From positions 36,877 through 100,876 of the forward strand of contig JABJJN010000054.1 of the NCBI GenBank assembly GCA_018660835.1: 64,000 nucleotides of DNA, written 5' to 3'. The stretch is from Gemmatimonadota bacterium. GTDB taxonomy: Bacteria; Latescibacterota; UBA2968; UBA8231. How positions within the stretch are numbered: the first letter of the stretch is position 1; each line of letters opens with the position of its first letter. Under the pieces are notes generated by a model. That model made no database searches and was not told where the DNA came from. It worked only from the letters and a program-made list of their open reading frames with translations. The translations under genes and the position numbers were made by a program. Positions 16,255 to 60,895 of this stretch are shown here, in pieces.

Positions 16255-16258
16255 TTTT

Positions 16259-17285: not shown

Positions 17286-17297
17286 TCAGCCAAGGCG

Positions 17298-21488: not shown

Positions 21489-21517
21489 AGGCAAGGCTTC
21501 AACAACCGAGAGACGCG

Positions 21518-22638: not shown

Positions 22639-22694
22639 AGAATGAGAATGGACGACCCCTTACTGCCAATCGCACGCAAATCTCGGAGAATGAC

Positions 22695-24058: not shown

Positions 24059-24074
24059 GCACCGAGAGGAGAGT

Positions 24075-24593: not shown

Positions 24594-24631
24594 TCAATAC
24601 TCACGTACCCTGACCAGATGGCAGGCCAGAG

Positions 24632-26006: not shown

Positions 26007-26072
26007 AGAGACCTGTATCTATCTGTTGTCTTGAGAAGGACGTTGCACTGAGCGTGTGCCGTTGGATTAACA

Positions 26073-28711: not shown

Positions 28712-28734
28712 GATGACAGAACAGCGAGAAGCCA

Positions 28735-29733
28735 TTGCAGACCCGTGAGATACGCCTCGAGCGTTACCCCGACGGACTACCTACATCCGACCACTTCAAT
28801 CTGGTTTCCGTCGATCTACCTGAGCCACAAGATGGTGAGGTACTGGTGCGCAACCGCTTCATGTCGGTCGATCCCTATATGCGCGGCCGGATGCGCGAGG
28901 GCAATCCGTATTTTTCGCCCTTCGCTCTGGGTGTCGCCCTCGATGGTGGATGTGTCGGCGAGGTCATCGCCTCGAACCACCCGGACTTCGAGGTGGGGGA
29001 TGCCGTCACCGGCTTCTACGGCTGGCGTGAGCACTTCGTCACCTCGGGTAGCGAGGTGACCCACGTAGATCCCGACCTTGCGCCGCTTTCGACTTACCTT
29101 GGTACTCTTGGGATGCCGGGAATGACCGCCTACGTTGGCCTCCTCGACATCGGGCGCCCTGAGCCTGGCCAGACCGTATTCGTCTCCGCCGCCTCTGGGG
29201 CGGTCGGTTCGATCGTCGGCCAGATTGCCCGGATCAAGGGCTGCCGTGTCGTCGGCAGCGCTGGTTCAGACGAGAAGGTCGCCTGGCTCTGCGACGAGGC
29301 CGGTTTCGACGCCGCCTTCAACTACAAGTCAGCAGGTGATCTCGCCGCCGAACTCGACCGCCATTGCCCCGACGGTATTGATGTCTACTTCGACAATGTC
29401 GGTGGTGCCCACCTTGAGGCGGCCATCGACCGCATGAACTTCCATGGTCGCATCGCCTTGTGCGGAATGATCGCCCAGTATAACGCCACTAAAACGTCCT
29501 CAGGTCCTGCAAACCTGATGTTAGCCGTCGGCATGCGTCTCACACTCCAGGGTTTCATCGTCAGCGACTACGAGCATCGACGTGAAGCCTTCCGTGCCGA
29601 CATGGCCGCCTGGATCGGTGCAGGTCAGATCAAATGGAGAGAGACCGTGATCCAGGGACTCGAGAATGCACCGGTCGCCTTCACCGGGCTTTTCCGCGGT
29701 GACAATATCGGCAAGATGGTCGTCGAACTGTAG
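28735..29733 (+). CDS. NADP-dependent alkenal/enone oxidoreductase (zinc-free MDR, YncB/CurA/PTGR-like)
   Basis: YPDGLPTSDHFNLV...VLVRNRFMSVDPYMRGRM and the Rossmann motif AASGAVGSIVGQIARIKGCRVVGSAGSDEKV. TTG start. Confidence 0.85.
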   Translation: MQTREIRLERYPDGLPTSDHFNLVSVDLPEPQDGEVLVRNRFMSVDPYMRGRMREGNPYFSPFALGVALDGGCVGEVIASNHPDFEVGDAVTGFYGWREHFVTSGSEVTHVDPDLAPLSTYLGTLGMPGMTAYVGLLDIGRPEPGQTVFVSAASGAVGSIVGQIARIKGCRVVGSAGSDEKVAWLCDEAGFDAAFNYKSAGDLAAELDRHCPDGIDVYFDNVGGAHLEAAIDRMNFHGRIALCGMIAQYNATKTSSGPANLMLAVGMRLTLQGFIVSDYEHRREAFRADMAAWIGAGQIKWRETVIQGLENAPVAFTGLFRGDNIGKMVVEL

Positions 29734-29801
29734 GCTCACCGGCCCCTCATGGACGCGAAAGTGCAGCAACCTTGTGAAAACCTGGATGATGCGACATAGG
29801 A

Positions 29802-30752
29802 ATGAGCGGACCGAATATGGAAAAACTGGATCTTGAGGCCCTGCCGACACGGCACTACGATCACCTTGTGTTCGACAGCATGCGTTGGCAGATTTTCGAA
29901 ACGCGCGCTGATGACATCCTGATCTGTACGCCCTACAAATCAGGCACGACGTGGATGCAGATGATCTGCGCCTTGCTGGTATTCCAGCGGCCAGACCTTC
30001 ATCTGCCCCTGGCGGAGATCTCACCTTGGATGGATCTGAAAGCGGCGACGGCGGAAGACACGCACGCAGTCTACGCCGCCCAGAGTCATCGACGGTTCAT
30101 TAAAACACACACGCCCCTGGACGGTCTGCCCTGGTATCCTGAGGCGACCTACATCTGTGTTGCCCGGGATCCACGCGACATCTTCATGTCGATGATGAAT
30201 CACCTGCGCAATGGCAATCCAGATGCAGAGGCGATTTTCATGCGTGAGTTACGTGAGGCGGGGTTCGTACCGGAGGTGCCCGACGATCCGAATGCCTTGT
30301 TCACCAATTGGCTCGGCAAAGGCAGTTTCGAATGGGAGAGCGATGGAGCACCCTACTGGTCGGTGTTTCGCCACGTTGCTTCATTCTGGGCGCATCGTGA
30401 TATGTCGAACATTCACATGGTGCACTACAGTGACTTGAAGACCGATCTTGACGGTCAGATGCGTCGAGTTGCACAAGCTCTGCGAATCGAGATTGCCGAG
30501 GACAGGTGGCCCGAATTGGTTGAGGCAGCTCAGTTCGAGAGTATGAAGAAGAATGCAGATCGCACGGCACCAGATACGAATTTCAAGATGTGGAAGTCCA
30601 ATTCACAGTTCTTCAACAAAGGAACCACCGGGCAATGGCAGGGCGTGCTGTCGTCGGAGAGTCTGGCGCTCCTGGATCAGCTAACGGACAAGTACCCAGC
30701 AGACTACATCGACTGGCTCTTCAATGGTTCGAAGTTGACGGCGGAATCCTGA
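29802..30752 (+). CDS. PAPS-dependent sulfotransferase (Sulfotransfer_1-like)
   Basis: The 5'-PSB loop CTPYKSGTTWMQMI and a 3'-PB-like segment VARDPRDIFMSMMNH are present. The architecture resembles cytosolic or StaL-type sulfotransferases. Confidence 0.8.
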   Translation: MSGPNMEKLDLEALPTRHYDHLVFDSMRWQIFETRADDILICTPYKSGTTWMQMICALLVFQRPDLHLPLAEISPWMDLKAATAEDTHAVYAAQSHRRFIKTHTPLDGLPWYPEATYICVARDPRDIFMSMMNHLRNGNPDAEAIFMRELREAGFVPEVPDDPNALFTNWLGKGSFEWESDGAPYWSVFRHVASFWAHRDMSNIHMVHYSDLKTDLDGQMRRVAQALRIEIAEDRWPELVEAAQFESMKKNADRTAPDTNFKMWKSNSQFFNKGTTGQWQGVLSSESLALLDQLTDKYPADYIDWLFNGSKLTAES

Positions 30753-30798
30753 ATGCAGGTGGTATGATGACACTCACGCACGCGGACAGACGAAGAGC

Positions 30799-31206
30799 AT
30801 GACAGTCGAGATCAGCCTCAAAGACAAGATAGAAGATGAGGAGGTGTTGGCGCTCTATCGCGCCAATGACTGGTCCTCGGCAGAGAAACCTGTGCAGCTT
30901 CTGGCGGCACTGCGTGGGTCTCATACGCTTGTGACGGCACGGGCTGAAGACCGGCTTGTAGGAATCGCCAATGCGATCTCAGATGGACATCTGGTGGTCT
31001 ACTACCCTCACCTATTGGTGCATCCGCATTTTCAACGTCGAGGAATTGGACGAAGGATGATGGCGGCACTGCAGGGGAGGTATTCAGCCTTTCATCAGCA
31101 AATGCTGACGGCGGATGGGGAAGCCATCCCATTTTATGAGGCCCTTGGATTCGTCCGGGCAGGAAAAACAGAGCCCATGTGGATCTACGCGGGCAGTGAA
31201 CACTAA
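30799..31206 (+). CDS. GNAT-family N-acetyltransferase
   Basis: LLVHPHFQRRGIGRRMMAAL ... FYEALGFV. 135 aa. Confidence 0.8.
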   Translation: MTVEISLKDKIEDEEVLALYRANDWSSAEKPVQLLAALRGSHTLVTARAEDRLVGIANAISDGHLVVYYPHLLVHPHFQRRGIGRRMMAALQGRYSAFHQQMLTADGEAIPFYEALGFVRAGKTEPMWIYAGSEH

Positions 31207-31221
31207 GAGAAAGAGGTCACG

Positions 31222-31854
31222 ATGGAACGTGTATTCGCAAATCTCTACCGCATGGGCGCCCCCAACAGGAGAGGGACGAGCTACTCCTATCTCCTCGTCC
31301 GCAAGGAGGGAAACCTTCTGGTCGCGCACCAAAGCGCGCCCTCACGGGCGGACATTGCCGAGATCAAGAAACTTGGCGGCATAGAAAGCCAATGGGTCTG
31401 CCACCAGCATGATACGCTCACAGACGGTGCGCATGAAGATCTTCACGATCGCTTTGGCTGCGTGCTACACCACCACACCCAGGATAGACCGGCGGTACGC
31501 AAGAAAACGAAGTGCCCAGTGGAGCAGCACGGCAACGAGGGTCTGCAGTATGCACCTGATTTCGAGGTGATGTACTGGCCGACTTGCACGTCCGGACACT
31601 GCATCTTCCGCTGGCGAAGTCGAGGTAAGTACTACCTCTTCACGAGTCACGCAATCTATGCCCAGGGCAATAAGTGGGAACTGCAGTTCAACCCGCGGCG
31701 CATGGACCAGATCGGCCCGCAGCTTTCCCAACTCGCAAAGGCACAAGTGGACTACGTGTTTCCCGGCTACTCACCAGCCGATGAGAGTGGTTTCTACCGT
31801 CTCAATGACCAGACACGGAAGTCCCTGGCAAAGGCGATGAAGGCTGCAGCCTGA
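31222..31854 (+). CDS. MBL-fold-like protein with H-x-H-D motif (paralog B)
   Basis: It aligns by eye along its length with 14917-15615 (NLYRMG / NLYRFTG; YLLVRKEGNLLVA / YLIVREGGNLLLP; WVCHQHDTLTDG / FVTHNHDVDG; KYYLFTSHAI / KHFLFTSHVI). Confidence 0.55.
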   Translation: MERVFANLYRMGAPNRRGTSYSYLLVRKEGNLLVAHQSAPSRADIAEIKKLGGIESQWVCHQHDTLTDGAHEDLHDRFGCVLHHHTQDRPAVRKKTKCPVEQHGNEGLQYAPDFEVMYWPTCTSGHCIFRWRSRGKYYLFTSHAIYAQGNKWELQFNPRRMDQIGPQLSQLAKAQVDYVFPGYSPADESGFYRLNDQTRKSLAKAMKAAA

Positions 31855-31886
31855 TCAAATAGGGCAGCTATCGAGAGGAGATCGCT

Positions 31887-32492
31887 ATGTCCGCATCATC
31901 CCCATCCCATCTCAACCTTGACCGTCTCAAGCGTGAGGCACGAGACCTCCTGAGTTCCTTCAACACAGGAGACGACGAGGCCATTTCGCGTGTGCAAAGT
32001 CACCTACGCAGGCTCCGCGAATCTGGTGAGACGTCGCAGCAGGACAGGCCCGTTGGTTTGCAGGAGGCGCAGTTTGTCGTGGCCCGCGAGCGCGGCTTCG
32101 AGAACTGGTCAGAGATAAGGCTGGCGACGAATCGTCCGACGCGGGCTGCCATTCCTGTTCTCGTGGTCCCTGACCTCAAGTCGGCGATCGATTTCTATAC
32201 ATCGAAGCTTGGGTTCACCGCCGGTTGGGATTATCCAGATCCCCCGACCTATGCTTCTGTCGCTTTTGGTGACGCCGAGATCCACTTGAGTGAGGTCGCC
32301 GACATCAAGGACACCGGTACCGATGTCTGGCTCTATCTCCAGGTTCAGGATGTAGATGACTTCTACGATTGGTTGGTGTCCAACGGCGTTGAAGTCGAGG
32401 GGCCTCCTGAGCAACGACCCTGGGGGATGCGAGAGATCGTTGCAACCGACCTCAACGGCTATCGTTTTCACATTGGAAGCAGTACGGAGTAG
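31887..32492 (+). CDS. VOC-family (glyoxalase/bleomycin-resistance-like) protein with N-terminal helical extension
   Basis: The C-terminal part reads PVLVVPDLKSAIDFYTSKLGF...RPWGMREIVATDLNGYRFHIG. The N-terminal roughly 90 aa reads LKREARDLL...LQEAQFVVARERGFENWSEI. Confidence 0.8.
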   Translation: MSASSPSHLNLDRLKREARDLLSSFNTGDDEAISRVQSHLRRLRESGETSQQDRPVGLQEAQFVVARERGFENWSEIRLATNRPTRAAIPVLVVPDLKSAIDFYTSKLGFTAGWDYPDPPTYASVAFGDAEIHLSEVADIKDTGTDVWLYLQVQDVDDFYDWLVSNGVEVEGPPEQRPWGMREIVATDLNGYRFHIGSSTE

Positions 32493-32502
32493 AGCCGTGG
32501 CA

Positions 32503-33027
32503 ATGACCACCTTCATCACGGGCGCATCAGGAACCGGGAAGTCCGCCCTTGTAAGTGCTCTCTGCTCTGCCGGTATCAAAGCTGTCGATATGGACGTTGT
32601 GCCAAATATAGCGAGATGGCTGAATCGAGACACGGGGACGCCGAGCAACTGGCAACCTGATGCAGGCGAAGAGTGGCACGGCTCGCACGACTGGATCGTC
32701 TCGACCGATCGTCTTAGTGAGTTGCTTCGCGACGATGAACTGCGTGTCGTCGCTGGGCTGTCTACCAATCAGTTAGAATTCGTCGATCAGTTCGACCTCT
32801 TAGTTCTGCTGCAGTGTTCTGAGATGACATTTCTGCAACGAATTCAGGAGCGTCCAGAAAACCGCTATGGCAGACAGCGATCGGAACGCAAACGGATACT
32901 GGGCACGTACAAGCAGATGGAAGCGGAGATGCTCCGGGCGGGAGCCATTCCTATCGACACAGACAGAGATCTCGATCTCGTCACGAGGGATGTCAGCGAT
33001 CTGCTCGACCAGCAACTGCAACCTTGA
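32503..33027 (+). CDS. P-loop NTPase / small-molecule-kinase-like protein
   Basis: The internal ATG 32503 gives MTTFITGASGTGKSALV (Walker A). Size is about 174 aa. The upstream part of the track ORF overlaps the VOC gene. Confidence 0.6.
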   Translation: MTTFITGASGTGKSALVSALCSAGIKAVDMDVVPNIARWLNRDTGTPSNWQPDAGEEWHGSHDWIVSTDRLSELLRDDELRVVAGLSTNQLEFVDQFDLLVLLQCSEMTFLQRIQERPENRYGRQRSERKRILGTYKQMEAEMLRAGAIPIDTDRDLDLVTRDVSDLLDQQLQP

Positions 33028-33049
33028 TGGGGCGTAAGGAGCGTGCAGG

Positions 33050-33685
33050 ATGAAAGCATCATCGGTTGAAGAGGTAAGAGAACTCTATGATGAAACGGCG
33101 GACTCCTATGCAACTATGATGGACGCCGAGATTGATCTCCCACTCTATCGTTCTGTCCTTGGGCGCCTGAACACACAGTTGCAAGGTGTTCCTGGTGTAC
33201 TGGTAGATACATCGTGCGGCTCTGGTCACATGTTGGCCATGTATCATCAACAATACGATCAGCAGCGTGCGCTGCTCGGCGTGGACCTCTCCGAGAGAAT
33301 GGTCGACATCGCCGCGATTCGACTCAGGGAGGCTGCCACGGTCTGCGTCGGTGATATGCGTGCGTTGAACATGGTAGAGGACGACTCAGCGGCTGCCGTG
33401 CTCAGCTTCTTTGCATTGCACCATCTGGACCCCGCCGGTGTTCGCCTCGCTCTTGCGGAGTGGCACCGTGTGACAAGACCTGGTGGGCGACTACTGATCG
33501 CCGCTTGGGAGGGGGAGGGTGCGATCGACTACGGCGAGGCATCCGAAGTGGTGGCATTGAGATATGGTGACATCGAGCTCGCCCGGTGGGCTCGTGACGC
33601 TGGGTTTGCTGTCGATCGCGTGTTCGTCGAGCCTGTCGAGGGCATGTTCATGGATGCAGTCTATTTGGATGCCACTAAGCCGTAG
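33050..33685 (+). CDS. Class I SAM-dependent methyltransferase
   Basis: Motif I is VLVDTSCGSGHMLAM. The post-I segment is LLGVDLSERMV, and GGRLLIAAW is also present. Confidence 0.8.
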   Translation: MKASSVEEVRELYDETADSYATMMDAEIDLPLYRSVLGRLNTQLQGVPGVLVDTSCGSGHMLAMYHQQYDQQRALLGVDLSERMVDIAAIRLREAATVCVGDMRALNMVEDDSAAAVLSFFALHHLDPAGVRLALAEWHRVTRPGGRLLIAAWEGEGAIDYGEASEVVALRYGDIELARWARDAGFAVDRVFVEPVEGMFMDAVYLDATKP

Positions 33686-33749
33686 CACACGACACAGTGG
33701 GCGACGTCGCTGCATAGGGGCGTGTTGGGTGGGCAGGGCGTCTGCGTGG

Positions 33750-34904
33750 CTACTGGCTGAAACTACGCACGGCGTCCTCGTCGATGTCCACACCGAGACC
33801 CGGTGAGTCATCGATGACGAAAGCGCCGTCCCGAGGCGTCGGATAGGTGTTGGCGATCCGGGCCTTGTGTTCGTGAGCGCCGTGTGAGTGCTCGAGGATC
33901 TGAAAGTTGGGGATGGCGGCGCTGAACTGAACCGAGGCGGCGACGGAGAGAATCCCGCCTCCACCGACATGCGGCGCCACGGGCAGACCGTACGTGTCGC
34001 AGATTCCAGCGATGCGTTTCCCCTCGGTCAATCCCGTGCGCGCGATATCGGGCATGGCCACGTCGAAGGCGTGAGCGTCAATCCAGGGGCGCCACTCCCA
34101 AGCGGTGCGCAACCATTCTCCTGTGGAGATCTGCAGATCAAGGGCTGCCGCCACCGTCGCGTGACCACGTACATCCTCGGCCATCGTCGGCGCTTCGAGC
34201 CAGCGTACACCCAATTCCTGAAGGCCACGTCCCAAGGTGATGGCCGCCGCAGTATCTCGTGTTCCATGGACGTCGACGAGAAGCTCTACCCCTTCGCCGA
34301 CAGCGTTTCGTACACCAGAAACGATGGCGAGCAGTTGATCGTTCGGTTGCCGCAAGTGGAGTTTGAGGGAATGGTAGCCCGCCTCGACGTGTCGCTGGGC
34401 GACATCGGCAGCCTTCGCGGGATCTGCCGCGCTGATTCCCGCGTAGATGGCGATGTGATCGCGGAAGCGACCACCCAACAAGCGGTGGGCGGGCAGGGAC
34501 AAGCTCTTGCCACGCAGATCGAACAACGCCAGATCGATGCCGGCGAGGGCGTCCACGTAGAAACCTGTGGCGTGCCCGCGCTCGCGCATCGCCGAATACA
34601 GGCGATACCAGATGTACTCCACATCGTTGGCGTTTCGACCGATGAGCAAGGGGGCACACAGGTCTTCGACAATGCCGACGACCGTCCGGGGAGAGACGGG
34701 CGCCTGGGCCTCGCCCCAGCCGATGACACCATCCTCAGATTCGATCCGCACCAGACAGGTCTCGTGCCGGCGTGAATAGATGGACGTCCAATGGTTGCGA
34801 TCAATGTAGTGGTCGGGGCCGACGTCCTGCCGCTGTGGATCGGGCCGTGCCTCTGACTCGGCGGGCATACGTATGGCGAAAGCGTCAACGCGACGGATGA
34901 GCAA
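33750..34904 (-). CDS. Enolase-superfamily enzyme (mandelate racemase/muconate lactonising, acid-sugar-dehydratase-like)
   Basis: N-terminal capping domain (IGWGEAQ), HSLKLHL, LLVDVHG, RWLEAP and STGEW provide the metal and acid-base ligand pattern. Confidence 0.85.
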   Translation of the reverse strand: MLIRRVDAFAIRMPAESEARPDPQRQDVGPDHYIDRNHWTSIYSRRHETCLVRIESEDGVIGWGEAQAPVSPRTVVGIVEDLCAPLLIGRNANDVEYIWYRLYSAMRERGHATGFYVDALAGIDLALFDLRGKSLSLPAHRLLGGRFRDHIAIYAGISAADPAKAADVAQRHVEAGYHSLKLHLRQPNDQLLAIVSGVRNAVGEGVELLVDVHGTRDTAAAITLGRGLQELGVRWLEAPTMAEDVRGHATVAAALDLQISTGEWLRTAWEWRPWIDAHAFDVAMPDIARTGLTEGKRIAGICDTYGLPVAPHVGGGGILSVAASVQFSAAIPNFQILEHSHGAHEHKARIANTYPTPRDGAFVIDDSPGLGVDIDEDAVRSFSQ

Positions 34905-43387: not shown

Positions 43388-45505
43388 TCAGTGGATCGGA
43401 CGGATCGGGACTGTCAGTGTAAACACGGTCCCTTTGCCATCCTGGCTCTGTGCCCCAAGCGTCCCACCGTGTTCACGCGCGATATTGAACGAGATGGCCA
43501 GTCCCAACCCGACACCTACGCCCACTCCCTTGGTTGTAAATCCGGGATCGAAGATTCGGCCCAGGTCTTCTTCCGGGATCCCATGTCCCGTATCGGTGAC
43601 CCGCACTCTGACCCACTCGTCATCGCTCACGGTTGTGATCGTGATCGTTCCTTCGCCATCGATCGCTTCGGCCGCGTTGAGCAGCAGATTCATGAATACC
43701 TGGTTCAGCTGCCTCGGGTAGCAGTCGATGGGCGGGATGCTGCCGTACTCCCGAATGATCGTGACGCGACCTTCCACTTCGTGGCGCAGTAGGTCGAGGA
43801 CGCTGTCCAGGCCCTGATGCACGTCGGCGCTCTGGAACTCGGCCTCATCGAGCCGGGCGAAATCCCTGAGGCTGCGGACAACGGACCCGATCCGCCGTCC
43901 ACCCGCCGCGATTAGAGCCACGTTCTGCCGGAGGATTCCGACCGTTTTCCGTAGTGACGTCTCCTGGAGTCGATCACCTGCGCCCTCCCTCTCGGTCTCG
44001 AGTTGCGCCTCCAGTCTGTCCACGCACCGAGCGGCTACGTCCGCCGCGCCGTTGACTGCCCCGACCGGGTTGTTGATCTCGTGGGCGACACCAGCCACCA
44101 ACTGCCCGAGGGATGCCATCTTCCCCGCCTGGACGAGCTGTGACTGCTTCTCCCTCAACTCCTGGGTCCGAGCTTCGACGCGATCCTCGAGTGTGTGGCT
44201 GTACGACTCGAGTTCAGCATTTGCAGACACGAGTCTCTTGCTGGTGCGTGCGAAGTCGCTCGCCAGGAAAACCGACATGCACGCGATGAGGAACAAAACC
44301 GCATAGAACGCGCTGTCGATGATGAACAGATCGAAGGCTGGAGACGGATCTCCGGCCATGGAGGTGATCGCGAAGAATGCGATGACTGTGAGGGGGAGGA
44401 TACCGACCGCCAGGATCCAGCTGCCTTCCACCGGCCGGGTGTCGCTTCGGAGTCGAGAGACGACGATGGTCCGGACGATCTCCGCGAAGAGCAGGAGGAA
44501 GAGAACCAGAACAGGCGTCCGCATGTGGAATGGCTCGAACCAGTGCCAGACCGAGAGGAGCCCCCCCATGCCTGCGAGCGGCAGATACGTCTTCGCGCGT
44601 TTTCCGAGGAAGATGACGTGGACGAGTCCTGTCGCGGCGAGGATCGAAGCGGTCGACGAGGTCATCTCCCAGGCGACGACGCCGGCAATGCCGTAAGGAT
44701 CCGTTGGCGACAGCATTTCGAAGGAGAAGATCCGGCCCCCTGCCGTGCCCAACAGGAACAGCGTGTAGTACATGTTGGCAGGTTGGGCGGGGTAGAAGAC
44801 GAAGAGGAAACAGTGAAGGAAAGCGAAGGCCAGGCACACGCCGATCAGGAAGATGCCGTGCGGACCGGGGAAGGCGGTCCGATACACCCACAGCGCCGGA
44901 TCCGTCTCGGACCCGCCGCCCTCCACCCGGGAGCCCGGGTCCGTCTCGCGCTCTCCGATCCTGAGGTTCAGCAGAGGAGGAGCGCCGTCGGCACGGAAGG
45001 ACAGGCCGTTCAGGGGCGCGTAGCGCAGGGCAATGACGTGACGAGACACCGCGCTGGATGCCGACACGGCCGGTGTGAGCGACGCCGATGGTGTGAGCGA
45101 CACCGATGGTGTGAGCTCCCACGGAATCGGCTCGGTGTTCACACCGTAGACACTTGAGTCTGTCGAGTCACCGATCCGGCCGAAGCGGCGGACGAGTTCG
45201 CCATCGAGATACACCTCGACGGCCCCCGCATATTGGAGAGCAAATGGCACTGGATGGCCCCATCGCGTCGAGTCGATCTCGAGGGAGCACCGGAACCATA
45301 CGACGCCTTCACTGGCCCCCTCAGGATACCGGGAGCGGGAGACAACTGGCCAGTCGCCGCTGTCGAAGGCAGGGCTTGCCCACGTGCGTTCGTCCCCGGT
45401 CTGGTAGGACCAGGTGTCAGACGGACGCAGCCCTTGCTCGGACCGGGTGGGGCTGACCATCGCGAGGATGGTGGCGGCGGCAATGATGAGGGTTGGGGCT
45501 ACCAT
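43388..45505 (-). CDS. Sensor histidine kinase with 7TMR-DISM extracellular and 7-TM modules
   Basis: Signal peptide present. The extracellular part (TWASPAFDSGDWPVV...VVWFRCSLEID) resembles 7TMR-DISMED2. Seven TMs follow. H-box VAGVAHEINNPVGAV, N-box MNLLLNAAEA, G-boxes DTGHGI and GVGVGLGLAIS. No receiver domain and no response regulator nearby. Confidence 0.9.
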   Translation of the reverse strand: MVAPTLIIAAATILAMVSPTRSEQGLRPSDTWSYQTGDERTWASPAFDSGDWPVVSRSRYPEGASEGVVWFRCSLEIDSTRWGHPVPFALQYAGAVEVYLDGELVRRFGRIGDSTDSSVYGVNTEPIPWELTPSVSLTPSASLTPAVSASSAVSRHVIALRYAPLNGLSFRADGAPPLLNLRIGERETDPGSRVEGGGSETDPALWVYRTAFPGPHGIFLIGVCLAFAFLHCFLFVFYPAQPANMYYTLFLLGTAGGRIFSFEMLSPTDPYGIAGVVAWEMTSSTASILAATGLVHVIFLGKRAKTYLPLAGMGGLLSVWHWFEPFHMRTPVLVLFLLLFAEIVRTIVVSRLRSDTRPVEGSWILAVGILPLTVIAFFAITSMAGDPSPAFDLFIIDSAFYAVLFLIACMSVFLASDFARTSKRLVSANAELESYSHTLEDRVEARTQELREKQSQLVQAGKMASLGQLVAGVAHEINNPVGAVNGAADVAARCVDRLEAQLETEREGAGDRLQETSLRKTVGILRQNVALIAAGGRRIGSVVRSLRDFARLDEAEFQSADVHQGLDSVLDLLRHEVEGRVTIIREYGSIPPIDCYPRQLNQVFMNLLLNAAEAIDGEGTITITTVSDDEWVRVRVTDTGHGIPEEDLGRIFDPGFTTKGVGVGVGLGLAISFNIAREHGGTLGAQSQDGKGTVFTLTVPIRPIH
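45072..45116. repeat. 18-nt tandem repeat (about 2.5 copies) inside the histidine kinase sensor domain
   Basis: The units are GGTGTGAGCGACGCCGAT, GGTGTGAGCGACACCGAT and GGTGTGAGC. On the minus strand they encode LTPSVSLTPSASLTPAVS. Confidence 0.8.
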
Positions 45506-45515: not shown

Positions 45516-47693
45516 TCAGGCTGATTCTGCCAGAATCCGATTCACAACCTGTTGTCGATATTCTTTCGACAGAGACCGGAAGTAGGCACTGTATCCGGTG
45601 ACTCGCACGACGAGATCGGGGTGTGCTTCCGGGTCTTCGTGTGCCTCCAGCAACTGCTCCTTCGAGATCACATTCAAGTTGATTAAAGTGCCGCCCAATT
45701 CATTGTGCGCCTTGATCAGGGCGATGACACTGTCGATGCCACCAATCGTGTGAGCCAGCGAACTGTCCAGATCCAATTGCAGGGGAGTTGTATTACCCCA
45801 GCGCGGTTGCACCATGGCCACGGCTGTTGACTTCGCTGTCGGTGCCCCGCCGCCGCCTGGTAGAAAACCGGGGTCGGGATTGGCATTGTGTGAGATGGGG
45901 TCGCCGCTGCGGCGACCATTGGGTGTTGCACTCAGTTTGGCGCCGAAGTGGTTGACTGTACCGTGTGAAAACAGACCCGGAAGAAGACGGAAGCCATTCG
46001 GTGTCGGTGTGCTGCGCACCAGATCGCTGTAGGCCTCACTGATCCGCAGGGCCCAGTAGTCGGCGCGGCTGCCTCCGGTGCCGAAACGTGCAATACTTTT
46101 CATCATCAGGCGTATGTCTTCAGCGTTCTCCCAATCGTTTTCGAGTTGCTCGGCCAATTCCTGCCAGCTCATGCGGCTCTCATGGACGATTCGCTGCTCG
46201 ATGGCGGCGAAGGAGTCCGCTACGGTCGCCGTGCCCAGACCATCTACAGTGAGATTGTAGATGTCGACGCCACCCTCGGCTACGTCGAGCCCCCGTTCCA
46301 CGGTGCCATGCATGAACAGATTCAGCACGATTTCCGCCGTGTAGCGGGAGTGGTGCTCCATGTGCCAATCCTTGCCACGCTTCAATGCGTCAACACCGAC
46401 GGCCAGGTGGTGGAGATAGCGAGTCCAGAGACGATCCATCGTCGGCGCTTCGCCGCTAGATTGCTCGTGCCGGATGACATCGTTGAAGGCGTGCTGGAAT
46501 GGCGCAACCAGGCACTGTCGGGTCACATCCTGGAGACAGTATTCTACCCCTGGCAGGGCCGTCCAGTTGCAGCCGACTTTGGCTCGCATACGAGCCAGCT
46601 GGATCGGGTAGCCATTGCGCGCGAAGCCCTCGTCCAGACCCTTGGCACAGGCGTAGCTGACTCCCGTACCATCGGCGAATAGATTCGTCACGGCCTGATG
46701 CAACAGCGACGGGTCGAGATCGTCATGGACCCTGAGCGCCATGTTGATGGGGATGTGCAACTGGTGCATCGCCTCCAGGACCATGAAGGACACAGGGCAG
46801 GTCAGGTCGTGGCCATCGGTGGCGGGGCCGCCGATCTGTGAGTAGTGGGTGTCATTGAAGAAGAGGCTGGCCAGACACCAGACCGCTTCCTCATCACAGA
46901 GTCGACCCGCCGCCACATCTGCTTCGTAGAAGGGTCGCAGCAACTCATCGATCTGTCCCAGACCCCCACCTGCAGCCCACATGCGATCCACCGACTGGAA
47001 CCAGGCCAGAAACTGGCAGGCCTCGCGGAAGGTGCGAGGTGGTCCTTCCACAAGCCATTCATTCATCTGAGCTATCTGCAGGAGATTCTCGCGTATCTGA
47101 GGATCGGCGGTTTGCGCCGCAAGCTGTCGGGCGTCGTGTGCATGTTGGCCTATCCACACCTGCACTCCCTCTACGAACGCTTCCTCTCCCTCATAGAAGG
47201 CAGGGTCGGTGGGCTGGTTGAGTTTGTGGTAGCGTCGCAACTTGGCCAGCAGACCACCCCAACCCAGATCCAGTCCGATCTGCATATCCGGTCCGATGTG
47301 GTTCATGCCCCCGATACCAGGCATCAGCACATTGTATTTCTCGAAGATCGGCTGCAGGTGGTCGGCGCGTGCTTCCTCGGGCCAGCCACCGACGCCAGGG
47401 ATACCGACCTGCACCCACGCACCGGCCAGAGCACTGTGCGGATGGATATACACGGGATGCACCTGAAGCCAGGCGCGAAAGTGCTCACCGATGGCGCGGA
47501 TGCCATAGGCTTTTCCGTCTGGATGATTAGGCATCGGTGTGAAGGGGATGGGTTCATCCCAGGGTACCCAGCCATGGTCATCGATATCGAGGGTGCCACG
47601 GCGGCGCAATTTCTCGCGCGTGTGCTCTATCTTCGTGCGTCGCAGGGCTTGAATACGTTCCTGGTAGGAGATGGCAGCCATCGTGTCCGTCAT
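45516..47693 (-). CDS. Glycyl-radical enzyme (PFL-like fold), divergent and short, substrate unknown
   Basis: The C-terminal glycyl-radical motif is VVRVTGYSAYFRSLSKEYRQQVVNRI (Gly700, codon 45594-45596). The Cys loop is RMRAKVGCNWTALPGVEY (Cys375, codon 46569-46571). Other GRE landmarks are VADSFAAIE and LSATPNGRRSGDPISHNANP. The start overlaps the activase stop by 4 nt. Confidence 0.9.
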   Translation of the reverse strand: MTDTMAAISYQERIQALRRTKIEHTREKLRRRGTLDIDDHGWVPWDEPIPFTPMPNHPDGKAYGIRAIGEHFRAWLQVHPVYIHPHSALAGAWVQVGIPGVGGWPEEARADHLQPIFEKYNVLMPGIGGMNHIGPDMQIGLDLGWGGLLAKLRRYHKLNQPTDPAFYEGEEAFVEGVQVWIGQHAHDARQLAAQTADPQIRENLLQIAQMNEWLVEGPPRTFREACQFLAWFQSVDRMWAAGGGLGQIDELLRPFYEADVAAGRLCDEEAVWCLASLFFNDTHYSQIGGPATDGHDLTCPVSFMVLEAMHQLHIPINMALRVHDDLDPSLLHQAVTNLFADGTGVSYACAKGLDEGFARNGYPIQLARMRAKVGCNWTALPGVEYCLQDVTRQCLVAPFQHAFNDVIRHEQSSGEAPTMDRLWTRYLHHLAVGVDALKRGKDWHMEHHSRYTAEIVLNLFMHGTVERGLDVAEGGVDIYNLTVDGLGTATVADSFAAIEQRIVHESRMSWQELAEQLENDWENAEDIRLMMKSIARFGTGGSRADYWALRISEAYSDLVRSTPTPNGFRLLPGLFSHGTVNHFGAKLSATPNGRRSGDPISHNANPDPGFLPGGGGAPTAKSTAVAMVQPRWGNTTPLQLDLDSSLAHTIGGIDSVIALIKAHNELGGTLINLNVISKEQLLEAHEDPEAHPDLVVRVTGYSAYFRSLSKEYRQQVVNRILAESA

Positions 47694-48652
47694 GATCCGG
47701 ATACTCTTCCGTTGGTAGGGACTGTGGGGGCGTGCGGGCGGACCTCGCTTACATGGTGACGCGCGATGGCCGCCAGAGTCTGCAGTTGATCGGCATCGGG
47801 TGTGGTGAACTGGGTACTGGCGGGCAAGTCCAGACTAGAAAGTTTGGCGTCACCGAGGGGGTGGTAAGGAAGCAGTTCATAGTAAAGGAGGCTCTCGAAG
47901 GCGCCGATATGACGGGCGATGCCACCGATCTCCTCGCGTGTATCGTTCACCCCGCCAATGACAGGTGTGCGCACGATCAGCGGGCAGCCGGTGGCCGCCA
48001 GGTGGTCGAGGTTCTGCAGACTGCGCGTGCCATCATTGCCGATGTAGCGGCGCGACAGTTCCTGGTCGAGGATCTTCACGTCGTACATCACCAGGTCGAC
48101 GTGGGGCAGCAGCGATGCAAGGAATTTCCAGGGGTAGTTGCCGGCCGTGTCGATGGCAACGTGCAGACCGCGTTCGCCGCAGGCGATCAGCAGTTCGCGC
48201 AGGAAATCGGGCTGCAGCACTGGATCGCCACCAGAGAAAGTGACGCCGCCGCCAGAGTGACGGTAGTAGACTTCGTCTTTGACGACCTCTGCGACGACTT
48301 GATCAACACTCATCGAACGGCCGGAGATCTCCAGGGCGCCGGTGAAACACTCTGCCGCACATTGCCCGCAGCCGACACAGACCTCTCGATCAAAGCGGCG
48401 CACACCGTCGTCCAGATGCTGGCCACCGTGCTCGCAGGCAACCACACAACGACCACAACCGATACAGCGGTCCAGATAGACCTGCAGTTGCGGCTTAGGC
48501 CGAATCGACTCGGGGTTGTGGCACCAGTCACAGCGATTCGAGCAACCCTTAAGGAATACGGTGGTCCGCACGCCCGGACCGTCGCTGCTAGAATTCCGCT
48601 GAATGTTGAAGATGATACCGCGCAGATGTGTGTCTGCGGTCACCGCCGTCAT
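47690..48652 (-). CDS. Glycyl-radical enzyme activating protein (radical SAM with two ferredoxin-type clusters)
   Basis: The radical SAM motif is CSNRCDWC (CxxxCxxC), followed by CIGCGRCVVAC and CVGCGQCAAEC (CxxCxxCxxxC) and then SGGDPVLQPDF. The likely start, ATG 48652, follows GGGGGAGG. The track ORF extends to 48724. Confidence 0.9.
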   Translation of the reverse strand: MTAVTADTHLRGIIFNIQRNSSSDGPGVRTTVFLKGCSNRCDWCHNPESIRPKPQLQVYLDRCIGCGRCVVACEHGGQHLDDGVRRFDREVCVGCGQCAAECFTGALEISGRSMSVDQVVAEVVKDEVYYRHSGGGVTFSGGDPVLQPDFLRELLIACGERGLHVAIDTAGNYPWKFLASLLPHVDLVMYDVKILDQELSRRYIGNDGTRSLQNLDHLAATGCPLIVRTPVIGGVNDTREEIGGIARHIGAFESLLYYELLPYHPLGDAKLSSLDLPASTQFTTPDADQLQTLAAIARHHVSEVRPHAPTVPTNGRVSGS

Positions 48653-51853: not shown

Positions 51854-53092
51854 TCATTGGTCTTTGTCCTTCTCACCGTACCCACCGGGCGGCCACGGAT
51901 CCAGGGATGCACCGGACGGACGCCGCCCCGTTGGCCTCCATGGCAAGTCGTGATACGAATCATAGGTCACGTCCAACCACGGCGTCTGTCTGCGGACATA
52001 CCCCTCGTGCCGTGAATCGAGCGCCGCCTCCAGCACGCCCGTCGCCAGCAACGTACGCTCCACCGGATAGGACGGGGTCCCGGTGAGGAACATCTCTTCG
52101 ATGTTCAAGCCCAGGTAACTGAAATGGCCATAGGCGCCGCCTGGTGCCCCGAGACCCTGGCAGAAAAACTCCGTTGCCGCGATCGAACCCGATCCACCAC
52201 GCTGCTTGGTTGGTACGCGCGCGGCGTAGGCCCAACTGGAGGCATAGCCGCTGAGCATCAGCACTGTCGCCTGAAGGCCATCGCAGTACTCGACGATGAA
52301 GGCGACAGGATTGTCACAGTGGTCCATCATTGTACCGTCTGGTTTGTCGACCATCACAGTGCAGGCTGCTTCTGTCAACTCACGGGACCATTCACCCGCC
52401 GCCGCCCGCCACACGGCGTCACCTTCCAGGCAGGTCACTGCTTTGACCCCCGTCTCCCCTCCGGCACGACGCTCCACCATGCACTGCAATGCCTCCAGGG
52501 TGTGAGAGCCGCAGATGTCCAATCCGGAAAAGCCAATGATGACGGCTTCCTCAATGGGCGTACCCAACTCGTGCTCCAGCCAAGGCGATCGCCAGGTCAC
52601 GGGCAAGGAGGACCCTGCCATGAAGGGAACACCCAACTCCTGGGCCCGGTTGCACATCCACATCGCATTGTCCCAGCTGTAGGACAGGTGTTTGTCGTTG
52701 AACACAGGAACACTTCTGCCGCTCGTCGCCATGACGCCGCAGATCTGCTCCATGAAGTAGCGGCGGGGGAACAAGTGCTGCTCTTTCTCGTTCCAGGCGT
52801 AGTCGCCGTGTTCACCGATGAGCAACACACCGTCCACGGCGAGTTCCTCTGTACCCAGCGTCAGCGCTTTTACAATGCTGGGATACACCGGGACGCCGTG
52901 CTCGGCAGCGCGCTGCAAGCCGATGTCTTCGTCGGCGATCTGGTCAATGTAGAAAGAGGCGATATCGACTCGCGGAGCGAAGAGACCTTCGTCGGTTGGA
53001 AAGCCCTTCAGGAATTTTGTTACCAGCACTTCGGCGTGGGAGTCGGGCCGGTATTCGGTGATAATGGCGGCGATCCTCTTGCGCTCAGGCAT
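51854..53092 (-). CDS. Conserved-looking hypothetical protein (degenerate Rossmann/Gfo-Idh-MocA-like N-terminus?)
   Basis: 412 aa. KRIAAIITEYRPDSHAEVLV at the N-terminus is Rossmann-strand-like but has no GxGxxG. It overlaps the upstream heparinase-like gene by 8 nt. Confidence 0.5.
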   Translation of the reverse strand: MPERKRIAAIITEYRPDSHAEVLVTKFLKGFPTDEGLFAPRVDIASFYIDQIADEDIGLQRAAEHGVPVYPSIVKALTLGTEELAVDGVLLIGEHGDYAWNEKEQHLFPRRYFMEQICGVMATSGRSVPVFNDKHLSYSWDNAMWMCNRAQELGVPFMAGSSLPVTWRSPWLEHELGTPIEEAVIIGFSGLDICGSHTLEALQCMVERRAGGETGVKAVTCLEGDAVWRAAAGEWSRELTEAACTVMVDKPDGTMMDHCDNPVAFIVEYCDGLQATVLMLSGYASSWAYAARVPTKQRGGSGSIAATEFFCQGLGAPGGAYGHFSYLGLNIEEMFLTGTPSYPVERTLLATGVLEAALDSRHEGYVRRQTPWLDVTYDSYHDLPWRPTGRRPSGASLDPWPPGGYGEKDKDQ

Positions 53093-54122
53093 TTGCTCTC
53101 TCTTCCGGCGCGAGCTCGCTTACGCGCAAGCGAACCTTTGCTGCGTTCGTTCCCGCCGCGAGGGTGAAGGTCAGGCGCTTGAGCGTCTCTTTCTTGTTGT
53201 TGGCGAGCGATTCTTCCGCGAAAGCCTGGACGCTCCACGTCGCACCTGCAGGTTCGAGGATTTCGAGTTCCAGCTGGTGTCTTGCACCCGAGATTCGGGC
53301 TGTCGCAGCATCGATCACGGGCTCCAGCCAGGTGACAAATGCTTCCTCAACGGGTTGGTCCTCAGCGGAAAAATCGAAACGGTCTTCGAAAACGATGTCG
53401 CCGCCGTTAAGCGTCAGAGTGCGTTGGAGGCTCTCCAGAGATACGCCGTGGTAGGCTCCGGCCATGTCCATCGCGATCCGCTTCTTGTCATCCGTGGTAT
53501 CGCAGGTCAGGATCTTGCCGCCGAATTCTGCACCCTTCGACTGCGGCGTGTCGCCAATCTTCGGAACCGAGTGACCGATGCTGTTGGCAAAGAGGTTGGC
53601 GTCGTGTCCGTGGCGGCGATACAGGTCGTACAGGCCCTTTTCCGGATCGCAGAGTAGCGTTTCTCCATCGGCGTGGATCACGAAGTGGCCGACGTCATTG
53701 TGGTTGTGGCTCACGCCATTGTGCCCGGTCTTTGCAGCGAGGACCACCTCAGCGCCCGCATCTGTCTTGCTTACGAGGCGAACGACAGCGCTCTGTCTGA
53801 GCCAGGCATCTTGCAGTTGCGGTGGATCGGGTCGCGTCCCATCCCACCAGAGCATGTTTCTCCAGGCCGTATGGAATCTGCTGAGGCCCATGGAAATACC
53901 CGCTGGCTCCGCCAGGGCGCCGCGCAGTTCCTCCACGCCGGTTCGCTCGATCAGGCGTGTGACCAGACCCGCTTCGAGTGCAACCCGTTCGTCGCAGTCG
54001 GAGTAGGCGAAGTAGCGACCGGGAGAGAGCATCACGTCGATTGGGTAGTGGGCGATCATCCTCACACGGTCAGTAGAAAGCAGGTCCATCAGGTGTTCAC
54101 GTGAATGCGCAATTGTGGCCAT
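53085..54122 (-). CDS. Heparinase II/III-like protein (C-terminal beta-sandwich domain only)
   Basis: GHNGVSHNHNDVGHFVIHADGETLLCDP is the characteristic H.H.D.G.F block of the heparinase II/III family. The protein is 345 aa and lacks the usual N-terminal alpha/alpha toroid. Confidence 0.7.
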   Translation of the reverse strand: MATIAHSREHLMDLLSTDRVRMIAHYPIDVMLSPGRYFAYSDCDERVALEAGLVTRLIERTGVEELRGALAEPAGISMGLSRFHTAWRNMLWWDGTRPDPPQLQDAWLRQSAVVRLVSKTDAGAEVVLAAKTGHNGVSHNHNDVGHFVIHADGETLLCDPEKGLYDLYRRHGHDANLFANSIGHSVPKIGDTPQSKGAEFGGKILTCDTTDDKKRIAMDMAGAYHGVSLESLQRTLTLNGGDIVFEDRFDFSAEDQPVEEAFVTWLEPVIDAATARISGARHQLELEILEPAGATWSVQAFAEESLANNKKETLKRLTFTLAAGTNAAKVRLRVSELAPEERANA

Positions 54123-57893: not shown

Positions 57894-59150
57894 TCAGTCG
57901 AATACCGGTCCATGTTCGGCAGCCCGGGTCTGCAATTCGTCCCAGTCCTTCGAGCCATCATCGTCCACGTATTCGAGACGGGCCCCAGCTTCGTGAATGG
58001 GCATGTTGCCATTCAGGGCATCCGTCCAGCACTGCTGGATGTTGGCATAGTAACGGCGGCGATCATCGGGCCATACCAGGGCCAGCAGCAGACGCAGGGG
58101 TGGGTGTTCGTACGGCGGCTCCATGCGCAGACGCGTCAGGGCCTCCTCGTCCACGTCGATCCCGAGACCGGGGCCTTCCGGCGTCTGCGCATACCCACCT
58201 TTGATCGTCAGCGGCGTCGCCAGCAGATCCTCTTCGTAGATATTCATGCAGTTCACCGCCGGCCACTGGGCGTGACTGAGGACAGACCCGAGTTGCAGTG
58301 ACAGAGCTGTCGTGATGCCCGTGCCGACGATCTGCAGGAAGAACGGTTTGTCGAAGGCTGCAGCCTGAATGCCCTGCTTCAGAACACCGCCGACGCCGCC
58401 ACCGACGACGAACCCGTCACAGACTTCGTCGCGTACCACCGTTGGAAAGGGTGGGTTGCCGAAGTGGTGGGCGATGGGTCTGGAGATCTTGCTGCGCAGC
58501 TGACGATTGCCCTCGACGTCGCCCTGAGGAATCGGCGACTCGTAGATGTCGACGATCGGATACTCGTCCAGCCGCTGCAGCACTGGTGTGGCCCGGCTGG
58601 CGTTGACGAGCATCTGGTTCCAGTCGATGTCGAGGTGGTAGTAGTCCGGCGTGGCATCGCGGACGGCCTCGACCTGAGCGTAGATGTCCCACCATGGGCG
58701 GCCCTTGATCTTGTGCGACGTGTAGCCACGGGACACTGCCTCGGCTGCTTCGGCGGCGAAATCCTCCGGTGACATGTCAACATTCCACCAGGAGATCGGG
58801 CACCACTGCCGCACGCTGGGTTGGTGGAAGAGCCGGTGGGCTGGCGCCTCGAAGGCCTTGCCGACCAGGTCGTAGATGGCCATTTGCAGACCGGCCCCGA
58901 GCGAGTCGTCACCGAGGAAGTCCACGGCATTGGCCCCTGTCACCCGGGCGATGGCCTCATCCGTGACCTTGCCCCATGTATAGTGGAGCATCGTCTCACC
59001 GTAGCCGACGATATCGGCTACGTCCGTGGTGACCCGTACAACTTCACTGATATCCCATTGGTATTGTTCGCGGGCACACCACACCTTGCAGCGAGGAGTG
59101 AATGGCACGTGGACGGTGATCCTCTCGACATCCTTGATCGTGATCTTCAT
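57894..59150 (-). CDS. Enolase-superfamily (mandelate racemase/muconate lactonising family) enzyme
   Basis: [25 protein letters not shown] and GFVVGGG give a spacing of metal and acid-base residues typical of MR/MLE members. Confidence 0.8.
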
Positions 59151-59341: not shown

Positions 59342-60895
59342 CTACAGCACTGCTTCGGTACGGGTTGAGGCGTAACCCGCGAAGTCGATGCCGGTAAGGT
59401 CGGCCATTTCCTTCTTCCACGTCGTGATGTCGTTCTGGCTGAACTGGCTGAGATGGTTGTGTCCACACGCGCGGGCGAGGACCTGGAGCAACTGTGTGGA
59501 AGCGTTCAGGTAGTTCTCCAGCCGCTTGGCGCCGATAGCCACATCAAGGCGTGCGCGGAGTTCAGGCTTCTGCGTGGCGACGCCGGCTGGACAGTTGTTG
59601 GTGTTGCACATCCTTGCTCCCACACACCCGACTGCCTGCATGGCTGAGTTGGCCAGCGCAACCCCGTCGGCACCGAGTGCAAGTGCTTTGGCGAAATCAG
59701 GCGGCATTCGGAGTCCGCCCGTGATGATGAGGGTGACATCGTGTGCTTTGCGCAGATCGAGGTAGTGGCGGGCTCTCGCAAGGGCCGGGATTGTCGGGAC
59801 CGAGATGTGATCACGGAAAATCAGTGGGGCGGCGCCCGTGCCGCCACCGCGTCCGTCCAGAATGATGTAGTCCACGCCAACCTGCAAGGCGAACTCGATG
59901 TCGTCTTCGATATGGTTTGCCGAGAGCTTCATGCCGATCGGAATCCCACCGGTGATGTCCCGAACCCGATCAGAGAATCGGGCGAAGTCTTCGACCGTCG
60001 AGAGATCCGAGAAGGTGGGCGGCGACACCGCTGCCTGACCTTCGTCTAATCCACGCACCTGAGCGATCTTACCCATCACCTTGTTCCCCGGTAGATGTCC
60101 TCCTGTACCGGTCTTTGCCCCCTGGCCGCCCTTGAAGTGGAATGCCTGCACCCGTGTGAGGAGGTCTTCCTGGTAGCCGAATTTCGCTGAAGCAAGCTCA
60201 TAGAAATAGCGGCTGTTCGCTTCCTGTTCCTCCGGCAGCATCCCGCCCTCGCCTGAGCAAATGCCGGTTCCTGCCATCTCCGCTCCCCTGGCGAGCGAGA
60301 GCTTTGCCTCTTCGGATAATGCCCCGAAGCTCATGTCCGAGACAAAGAGCGGGATCGCGAGTGTCATCGGTTTCTTAGCTCTGGGACCGATGACGAGTTC
60401 GGTGCCAACTTCTGCCTCGTCCATCAGAGGTTTGTGCGCAAATTGAGCCGTCAGAATCTGGAGATCATCCCACGTGGGCAGTTCGTTCCGAGGCACTCCC
60501 ATGGCGCCCATCTGACCGTGATGGCCGACTTTTGACAGTCCGTCCCGGGCAAGATCGTGGATGGCTTTGACGTGCGGCTCTTCTGGTGTGGGTCTGGCAA
60601 CGGGCATCCCGTCTGAAGGTTCATCTGCTGTTGTGTCGGCCTCTATGGCGGTGTCTGGCAGGCTGGCGTGTGAGCCATCGCAGTACGGTGGATTCTGCGT
60701 GTGTTTGCACATGCAGAGATGGGCCGTTTCACCTTTGCTTCCCTCGAACGCAACGGGTGTGAATTCCGAGCCGGCGTGGGATCCGTCACAGTAAGGTTGG
60801 TTGTTGGATTTTCCGCACGCACACCAGTAAAGCTCCTCTGTCGCCTCGAACTCAACTTCTACAGGCTTTACATCAGCGATCTGTGGCTCGGGCAT
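59342..60895 (-). CDS. Glutamate-synthase-domain-2-like FMN oxidoreductase with two N-terminal CDGSH iron-sulfur motifs
   Basis: There are two zf-CDGSH motifs (CACGKSNNQPYCDGSHAG and CMCKHTQNPPYCDGSHAS). The GltB FMN-domain pattern follows (FHFKGGQGAKTGTGGHLPG, ILDGRGGGTGAAP, GGLRMPPDFAKALALGADGV). Confidence 0.85.
   Translation of the reverse strand: MPEPQIADVKPVEVEFEATEELYWCACGKSNNQPYCDGSHAGSEFTPVAFEGSKGETAHLCMCKHTQNPPYCDGSHASLPDTAIEADTTADEPSDGMPVARPTPEEPHVKAIHDLARDGLSKVGHHGQMGAMGVPRNELPTWDDLQILTAQFAHKPLMDEAEVGTELVIGPRAKKPMTLAIPLFVSDMSFGALSEEAKLSLARGAEMAGTGICSGEGGMLPEEQEANSRYFYELASAKFGYQEDLLTRVQAFHFKGGQGAKTGTGGHLPGNKVMGKIAQVRGLDEGQAAVSPPTFSDLSTVEDFARFSDRVRDITGGIPIGMKLSANHIEDDIEFALQVGVDYIILDGRGGGTGAAPLIFRDHISVPTIPALARARHYLDLRKAHDVTLIITGGLRMPPDFAKALALGADGVALANSAMQAVGCVGARMCNTNNCPAGVATQKPELRARLDVAIGAKRLENYLNASTQLLQVLARACGHNHLSQFSQNDITTWKKEMADLTGIDFAGYASTRTEAVL

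Follow-up and report, generated by a model that had tools for sequence, protein, structure and literature searches.

A C-x-W cysteine loop appears to mark an uncharacterised branch within the superfamily of glycyl radical enzymes

The subject of this analysis is a glycyl radical enzyme (GRE) encoded in a 64,000-nucleotide stretch of DNA, here called the window, which covers positions 36,877 to 100,876 of contig JABJJN010000054.1 from a genome deposited as Gemmatimonadota bacterium (GCA_018660835.1; Latescibacterota in GTDB). In public assemblies the window was matched to contig JABHGI010000095.1 of metagenome-assembled genome GCA_018672135.1. Three consecutive open reading frames (ORFs) on the minus strand of the window encode a radical-SAM protein, the GRE and a histidine kinase. 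The GRE gene (45516-47693, minus strand) specifies 725 residues. An original prediction, made from the letters of the DNA and its ORFs, had described a pyruvate formate-lyase (PFL)-fold protein ending in the glycyl radical motif RVTGYSAYF and had proposed a search with the two family models; both matched above their Pfam cut-offs (PF02901, PFL-like, 248 bits with a cut-off of 24.3; PF01228, Gly_radical, 46.7 bits with a cut-off of 22.2). The motif lies at 45579-45605 on the minus strand, with Gly700 at 45596-45594; the radical position thus holds glycine and not the Ala, Ser or Thr of aminoacyl radical enzymes. The published C-terminal fingerprint of GREs is RVxG[FWY]x6-8[FL]x4Qx2[IV]x2R (PMC13450708), and the C-terminus of our protein, RVTGY-SAYFRS-L-SKEY-R-QQ-V-VN-R, fits it except that Arg713 (45555-45557, minus strand) replaces the Gln, a substitution that is invariant across the family alignment described below.

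The gene upstream encodes a GRE-activating radical-SAM enzyme (47690-48652, minus strand). Its ORF extends to 48724, and public gene calls start the protein at Met25 (48652), giving 320 residues. It scores 312 bits on the GRE activase model TIGR02494 (cut-off 174), contains Radical_SAM and Fer4 domains in Pfam, and carries the CxxxCxxC motif (CSNRCDWC) and the two CxxCxxCxxxC motifs that the prediction had listed, which make it an activase of the three-cluster type. As also predicted, its stop codon overlaps the GRE start as ATGA, an arrangement indicating translational coupling. Judged from sequence, the locus is predicted to encode a genuine, functional GRE with a dedicated activase, for which radical formation and O2 sensitivity are to be expected.

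Next, we asked which cysteine corresponds to the thiyl cysteine of known GREs. A phmmer search against all PDB sequences aligned 'kvGCnWtalpG' of our protein with 'vvGCvElsipG' of PflD and 'iiGCvEpqkpG' of glycerol dehydratase (GDH), and a profile of 28 family members gave the same loop register for GDH, propanediol dehydratase (PD), PflD and CutC. Cys375 aligns with GDH Cys433, with the loop cysteines of PD and CutC, and with that of E. coli PflD (8yjo; Cys431 in review numbering), and we assign it the thiyl position, as had been proposed. Alignments to solved GREs revealed no C-x-E or C-C loop elsewhere in the protein. The tip of the loop, Cys375-Asn376-Trp377, is encoded at 46563-46571 on the minus strand, where the codons read TGC-AAC-TGG as originally reported. 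Because the phmmer and profile alignments agree in register, Trp377 falls in the glutamate column of the C-x-E enzymes; the loop is C-N-W and lacks the substrate-bonded Glu that characterises 1,2-eliminases and isomerases. The same alignments show that His132 (47298-47300, minus strand) and Asp389 at Cys+14 (46527-46529, minus strand) keep the positions of GDH His164 and Asp447, while Gly243-Gly244 take the place of GDH His281-Ser282.

A June 2026 review of the superfamily distinguishes seven GRE classes (PMC13450708). According to it, CXE with a substrate-bonded Glu is kept by every C-O, C-N and C-S eliminase and by the new isomerases, HPAD has Glu505 at Cys+2, and the Cys-Cys pair occurs only in PFL and TdcE; entire GRE clades are left without assignment, and a Trp loop is not mentioned (PMC13450708). 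In the wider literature we found no description of a C-x-W loop, of its clade, or of the pairing of GRE and URO-D genes reported below.

An AlphaFold2 (AF2) model of the GRE had been proposed as a check. It returned the GRE fold (pLDDT 79.6, pTM 0.82) and was of low confidence at the active-site loops 131-133, 378-388 and 604-625, so that the fold is supported and the pocket is less well defined. In a Foldseek search the model superposed over its full length on many GREs, PD, GDH and PflD included (TM-score ~0.75, E 1e-31, ~20% identity), with none standing out.

Relatives of the GRE are encoded in 412 of 185,579 species (one genome per species). They form a tight core family with 55-85% identity and the loop RAKVGCNWTALPG. 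A word-indexed search listed 120 homologues of about 720 residues and 62-85% identity, named only 'pyruvate-formate lyase'; KVGCNWTA is present in all 120 of those listed and RVTGYSA[YF]F in nearly all. Chloroflexota, mainly Anaerolineae, dominate the 80 best loci, which also include Latescibacterota, Gemmatimonadota, Armatimonadota, Poribacteria, Spirochaetota and Firmicutes. The family alignment (A1) has more than 200 invariant positions, among them His132, Cys375, Gly700 and Arg713. Several genomes carry GRE-activase-GRE tandems in which the second GRE has G-C-H-W. Tandems of this order, located at about 0.1-15 kb, were seen in four metagenome-assembled genomes (MAGs) of Anaerolineae or other Chloroflexota (L027, L028, L030, L031); the second copy in L027 and L031 combines G-C-H-W with RVTGFSAYF. 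The alignment contains four GC-H-W rows whose individual source loci were not assigned, and L028 and L030 share the tandem arrangement. Such pairs suggest that one activase serves either two GREs with different substrates or a heteromer.

To see how far the C-x-W loop extends, we ran an exhaustive HMMER profile search of 1.84 billion 50%-identity representatives, which gave 1392 GRE-like clusters at E<=1e-30. The best 150 of these 1392 were aligned to the family hidden Markov model, and 116 of them cover the Cys loop: 56 have C-x-W and 46 have C-x-E, so the Trp loop occurs in at least 56 of the 50%-identity clusters. Scores run in a gradient from the core family with GCNW (1300-1100 bits) through sister subfamilies with GC[NH]W and one VCNW (770-590 bits) and distant subfamilies with C[HQFGP]W, mostly after Gly (400-270 bits), to canonical enzymes with GC[VIM]E (263 bits and below). 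All C-x-W scores exceed those of C-x-E proteins except for a few that interleave near the lower boundary (e.g. P0202 and P0212). Length and an indel separate the two groups as well. C-x-W proteins have 677-775 residues, apart from one of 795 and a 1052-residue fusion, and they lack an insertion of ~5-30 residues before the 'THYSQ' strand that most C-x-E proteins have. The shortness of the 725-residue GRE, stressed in the original prediction, is thus real and modest, given that C-x-E representatives range from 719 to 943 residues. Among 24 full-length C-x-W representatives the radical Gly is conserved in 24, the Asp at Cys+14 in 23 and the His in 19; the Asp is variable among C-x-E enzymes. The fusion (P0128 in our representative library) joins an N-terminal activase with CxxxCxxC and ferredoxin motifs to a C-x-W GRE with a GCNWF loop in one polypeptide.

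None of these proteins is captured by existing models. NCBIfam scans of the query (the GRE of the window), of nine sister representatives with C-x-W and of one protein without it produced no score at or above a cut-off; the query scored best on TIGR01774 (PFL2-3) with 206 bits where 678 are required, and lay far below the cut-off of every equivalog model. The source names of ten representative clusters are generic. No branch member has a solved structure, and the solved structures are ~20% identical to the query. Against these structures, the family profile scored highest on GDH (223 bits), PD (215), PflD (212), CutC (203) and HpsG (202), followed by X-succinate synthases (113-120), HPAD (93) and PFL (74). 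Together these comparisons indicate that C-x-W is diagnostic of a large, conserved and uncharacterised branch of GREs, which lies closest to the 1,2-eliminases and isomerases. The original suggestion of an uncharacterised subfamily was correct, in that the protein does not cluster with any GRE of known function, and it was understated, because the loop marks an entire branch.

The best profile and fold matches are the B12-independent 1,2-eliminases GDH and PD (PDB 1R8W, 5I2A/5I2G), which have in common with the query the barrel, both the Gly and the Cys loop, and the three-cluster activase type. It differs from them in replacing GDH Glu435 by Trp377, in being 60-110 residues shorter, in having no insertion ahead of the 'THYSQ' strand, and in the absence of microcompartment genes at its locus. 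The best single-sequence PDB match was PflD (3e-46). PflD and YbiW (PDB 8YJO, 8ID0, 8ID7) are anhydro-hexitol-6-phosphate isomerases that act on anhydro-sugar phosphates and are encoded in sugar-utilisation loci (PMC13450708). Where the query has Trp, they retain the glutamate of C-x-E (Glu433 or Glu443), which bonds the C2-OH; the query scores 178 bits on the model NF007437 (cut-off 1109), and no PTS or aldolase partners were seen with it. X-succinate synthases and arylacetate decarboxylases have the GRE fold and activase type in common with the query at far lower similarity, and no small-subunit genes were recognised beside the GRE, although no search was aimed at them. PflB and TdcE belong to the same superfamily and share the public annotation string of the query's relatives; they carry Cys418-Cys419 where the query has a single Cys, and only the C-terminal radical domain aligns.

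We then examined the genes around the relatives. ORFs were called in 80 related loci, 1000 of them were clustered, and 342 neighbours within 3.5 kb of a GRE were scanned with Pfam; nine families were tested for enrichment near the GRE, with the distal flanks of each locus as the control; the loci are not phylogenetically independent. The activase was enriched beside core-family GREs (30 versus 4, odds ratio 8.3, p=2e-6), adjoining the GRE in 34 of 70 family loci. The URO-D family was found among 15 of 346 near genes and 3 of 353 distal ones (odds ratio 5.3, nominal p=0.004). These were the only two families enriched by position at p<0.01, and one SDR cluster was marginal (7 versus 1, p=0.036). 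Frequent neighbours were sugar ABC permeases, GH3, GH38, GH43, GH116, GxGYxYP, SGSH-type sulfatases, SDRs and Zn-ADHs. These were no commoner close to the GRE than further out, which for the core family indicates carbohydrate-rich surroundings and no specific partnership; in particular, the near-versus-far control gave no support to glycoside hydrolases or ABC permeases as dedicated partners there. NagB/NagD neighbours in Chloroflexi, present in five loci only and divergently transcribed, were not generalised. No shell family of bacterial microcompartments (BMC) ranked among the 25 most frequent Pfam families in any of the three batches into which the 342 neighbour ORFs were divided.

The URO-D gene directly adjoins the GRE gene in the same direction in four loci of different lineages (L025, L040, L051, L078), and in L086 it stands in the GRE gene string with the activase between. 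Its partners in such strings include GH3 (L051), GH38 with a GH42-like hydrolase (P0202) and a sulfatase (L086). The URO-D neighbours score higher on MtaA/CmuA models than on hemE models, all below cut-off, and on this basis a link to the heme-type enzyme HemE was rejected. They are of two types (examples at L025:3020-4111, L051:8967-9953 and L013:6591-7592). In type 'b' the zinc ligands H-x-C...C, as in MtaA, are mostly present. In type 'a', H-x-C is present in about half of the members and the third Cys is absent; with its ligands incomplete, type 'a' therefore probably does not perform classical methyl transfer. In none of the batches did the 25 most frequent neighbour families include a corrinoid- or B12-binding partner. 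In a Clostridiales MAG (L079) a regulator with a PocR sensor and an AraC domain (17303-18664) shares a gene string with activase, GRE and GH38; this sensor type is known from propanediol regulons. Genes upstream in this locus encode a B12-binding radical-SAM (DUF4080) protein and one that is HMGL-like.

Sister-subfamily loci were more informative, with sugar or URO-D genes around the GRE in five of five. One (P0131) combines ABC sugar permeases, an FAD oxidoreductase, a LacI-type regulator and two Gfo/Idh/MocA proteins with activase and GRE; another (P0126) has a monosaccharide ABC transporter, activase, GRE and a ROK protein; and a third (P0159) has a SorC-type regulator, an epimerase, β-helix proteins, activase, GRE and a sugar ABC transporter. 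In P0202, three URO-D genes, GH38, a GH42-like gene, GRE, an MFS transporter and activase are all on one strand, and in P0124 the GRE is convergent with a URO-D gene. The original prediction had called the context atypical and without a known partner. For the window, where no BMC shell family occurs within 10 kb on either side of the GRE, this stands; for the relatives it does not, given the sugar loci of the sister subfamilies and the recurrent URO-D genes.

Within the window, the GRE is flanked by kinase, deacylase-like, ceramidase-like and heparinase II/III-like genes. The membrane histidine kinase (43388-45505, minus strand) starts 10 nt past the GRE stop and is probably co-transcribed with the GRE. 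The prediction had described it as an orphan 7TMR-DISM kinase. The 10-nt gap and the lack of an adjoining response regulator were upheld, whereas Pfam gave only HisKA and HATPase_c, with no 7TMR-DISM_7TM or 7TMR-DISMED2 match at E<=0.1. Its hydrophobicity is compatible with a 7TMR-DISM layout: beyond the N-terminal stretch, the first lies at residue 211, with more to about 410. Ahead of this is an N-terminal region of ~190 residues. Pfam recognises no sensor domain in the kinase, which has only a marginal β-sandwich match (BetaGal_ABD2, E 0.04). In close relatives of the GRE (L009-L012, 74-82% identity) the kinase is absent downstream, and for this reason we rejected it as a partner.

Further away, positions ~14000-34000 form a block of lower GC (0.55-0.58 versus 0.60-0.65) in which almost every gene is read from the plus strand. 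It includes a streptomycin-type adenylyltransferase (20091-21008), PhyH (23348-24058, plus strand, E 5.5e-23), an SGSH-type sulfatase (27116-28711) and a sulfotransferase (29802-30752), together with GNAT, nucleotidyltransferase and methyltransferase genes, a weak GH130-like gene and a Zn-ADH. The block may be an acquired island for glycan or small-molecule modification. The PhyH noted in the original prediction is real; sulfatase, sulfotransferase and PhyH lie 15-22 kb from the GRE, and PhyH, at 21 kb, is uninformative about it. SGSH-type sulfatases (Sulfatase plus SGSH_C) also recur near GRE and URO-D genes in other loci (L010, L019, L086), with hosts among Latescibacterota, Chloroflexota and Halanaerobiaceae MAGs, a hint that the upstream polymer is a sulfated amino-sugar glycan. 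On the other side of the GRE, an overlapping pair of minus-strand genes (51854-53092 and 53085-54122), conserved in every public copy of the contig, encodes a heparinase II/III C-terminal-like protein and a 412-residue protein with no significant Pfam family. Beyond these are an MR_MLE-type enolase-superfamily gene (57894-59150) and a minus-strand gene (59342-60895) whose product joins two CDGSH iron-sulfur zinc-finger motifs to a glutamate-synthase/FMN-dehydrogenase-type domain.

What might the C-x-W enzyme do? In GREs the activase takes a hydrogen atom from the Gly, the glycyl radical turns the Cys into a thiyl, and the thiyl takes hydrogen from the substrate. We propose, with real reservations, that the GRE of the window probably transforms a carbohydrate by radical chemistry, without recourse to the Glu-dependent mechanism. 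The activase would abstract hydrogen from Gly700, the glycyl radical would generate a Cys375 thiyl, and this would attack a C-H bond of a carbohydrate or sugar-derived polyol. The hydroxyls of the substrate could be held by His132 and Asp389, at the hydroxyl-binding positions of GDH, in a pocket that Gly243-Gly244 would widen relative to His281-Ser282, and Trp377 may provide a stacking platform for the sugar ring. Since the Glu that deprotonates a substrate hydroxyl in every known eliminase and isomerase is absent, either another base would have to serve or the radical transformation would differ, for example C-O or C-C cleavage, isomerisation or epimerisation. The URO-D-like (MtaA/CmuA-like) protein would often act up- or downstream.

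Several observations weigh against this proposal. Glycoside hydrolases and ABC permeases are no commoner near core-family GREs than in the distal flanks, and because of this the sugar genes of core-family loci may simply mirror the saccharolytic lifestyle of their phyla. In about half of the loci no activase adjoins the GRE, and gene contexts differ greatly. The operon in the window contains no sugar transporter or hydrolase and has kinase, deacylase-like and ceramidase-like neighbours. The roles given to Trp377, His132 and Asp389 are drawn from alignment, and the AF2 model is of low confidence at exactly these loops.

A bolder form of the proposal, which we put forward tentatively and hold to be possible without being likely, is that C-x-W defines an eighth functional class of GREs, which would catalyse a new kind of radical reaction on a sugar, free or modified, and dispense with the Glu-dependent ketyl step. 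Here the Trp would stack on the sugar, the reaction could be C-O or C-C cleavage, deoxygenation, demethoxylation or epimerisation, and a URO-D-like partner would often be involved.

The strongest competitor, though unlikely in our view, is an ordinary 1,2-eliminase or isomerase of a diol, polyol or anhydro-sugar, working by the ketyl mechanism with the base relocated to, for instance, Asp389, His132 or Glu384; its chemistry would be known and only its substrate new. The closest relatives in sequence and fold (GDH, PD, PflD, CutC), the retained equivalents of GDH His164 and Asp447, the near invariance of the Asp at Cys+14 across the branch and a carbohydrate context like that of PflD and YbiW would all fit. 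Set against this, Trp is fixed in at least 56 clusters, score, length and indel set the branch apart, and all the enzymes in the eliminase and isomerase sections of the review keep the substrate-bonded Glu of C-x-E (PMC13450708).

We regard as rather improbable that the substrate is not a sugar, the GRE taking part instead in methyl-group or small-molecule chemistry with the MtaA/CmuA-like URO-D protein, or in a housekeeping role unrelated to its neighbours. Such a role would accord with the finding that URO-D, unlike glycoside hydrolases and permeases, is the sole non-activase family strongly enriched by position, with the MtaA-like ligands of type 'b', and with the heterogeneous contexts in which many GREs are solitary. 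It is harder to reconcile with the lack of a corrinoid or B12 partner among the commonest neighbour families, the B12-binding radical-SAM protein of L079 being a single case; with the tightest operons, which join URO-D to glycoside hydrolases or a sulfatase; or with sister operons, in which dedicated ABC transporters for sugars occur alongside ROK, LacI or SorC regulators.

The absence of the canonical Glu and of the fingerprint Gln could also be read as signs of a decayed or non-catalytic homologue. This is very improbable: the core family is conserved across phyla at 55-85% identity with Gly700, Cys375 and Arg713 among its invariant positions, the activase is intact and translationally coupled, and a natural activase-GRE fusion exists in the branch. 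Least credible of all is PFL itself, the name given to relatives in their sources ('pyruvate-formate lyase' or 'formate C-acetyltransferase'), since there is no Cys-Cys pair, TIGR01255 scores 59.8 bits with a cut-off of 994, and the PFL structure ranks with the poorest PDB matches, aligning in its C-terminal part only. PFL function and pseudo-enzyme status are effectively excluded.

Altogether, the window leads to an uncharacterised, sharply defined branch of GREs, and not to a categorically new system. C-x-W in place of C-x-E, Asp at Cys+14 and a chain that is short together diagnose its clade, which is large and shows conservation between phyla; the search for its substrate is narrowed to carbohydrates, and URO-D-like proteins are its recurrent partner. 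The public names seen for branch proteins ('pyruvate formate-lyase' and 'formate C-acetyltransferase') are all almost certainly wrong, and such misnaming skews the metabolic reconstruction of many lineages not in culture. Every new assignment of a GRE class has brought a previously unknown anaerobic pathway to light, as for choline conversion to trimethylamine, hydroxyproline, sulfonates and anhydro-sugars. If C-x-W does define an eighth class, it would represent an anaerobic route for a carbohydrate otherwise processed by O2-dependent enzymes, serving saccharolytic Chloroflexota, Latescibacterota, Armatimonadota, Spirochaetota and Firmicutes.

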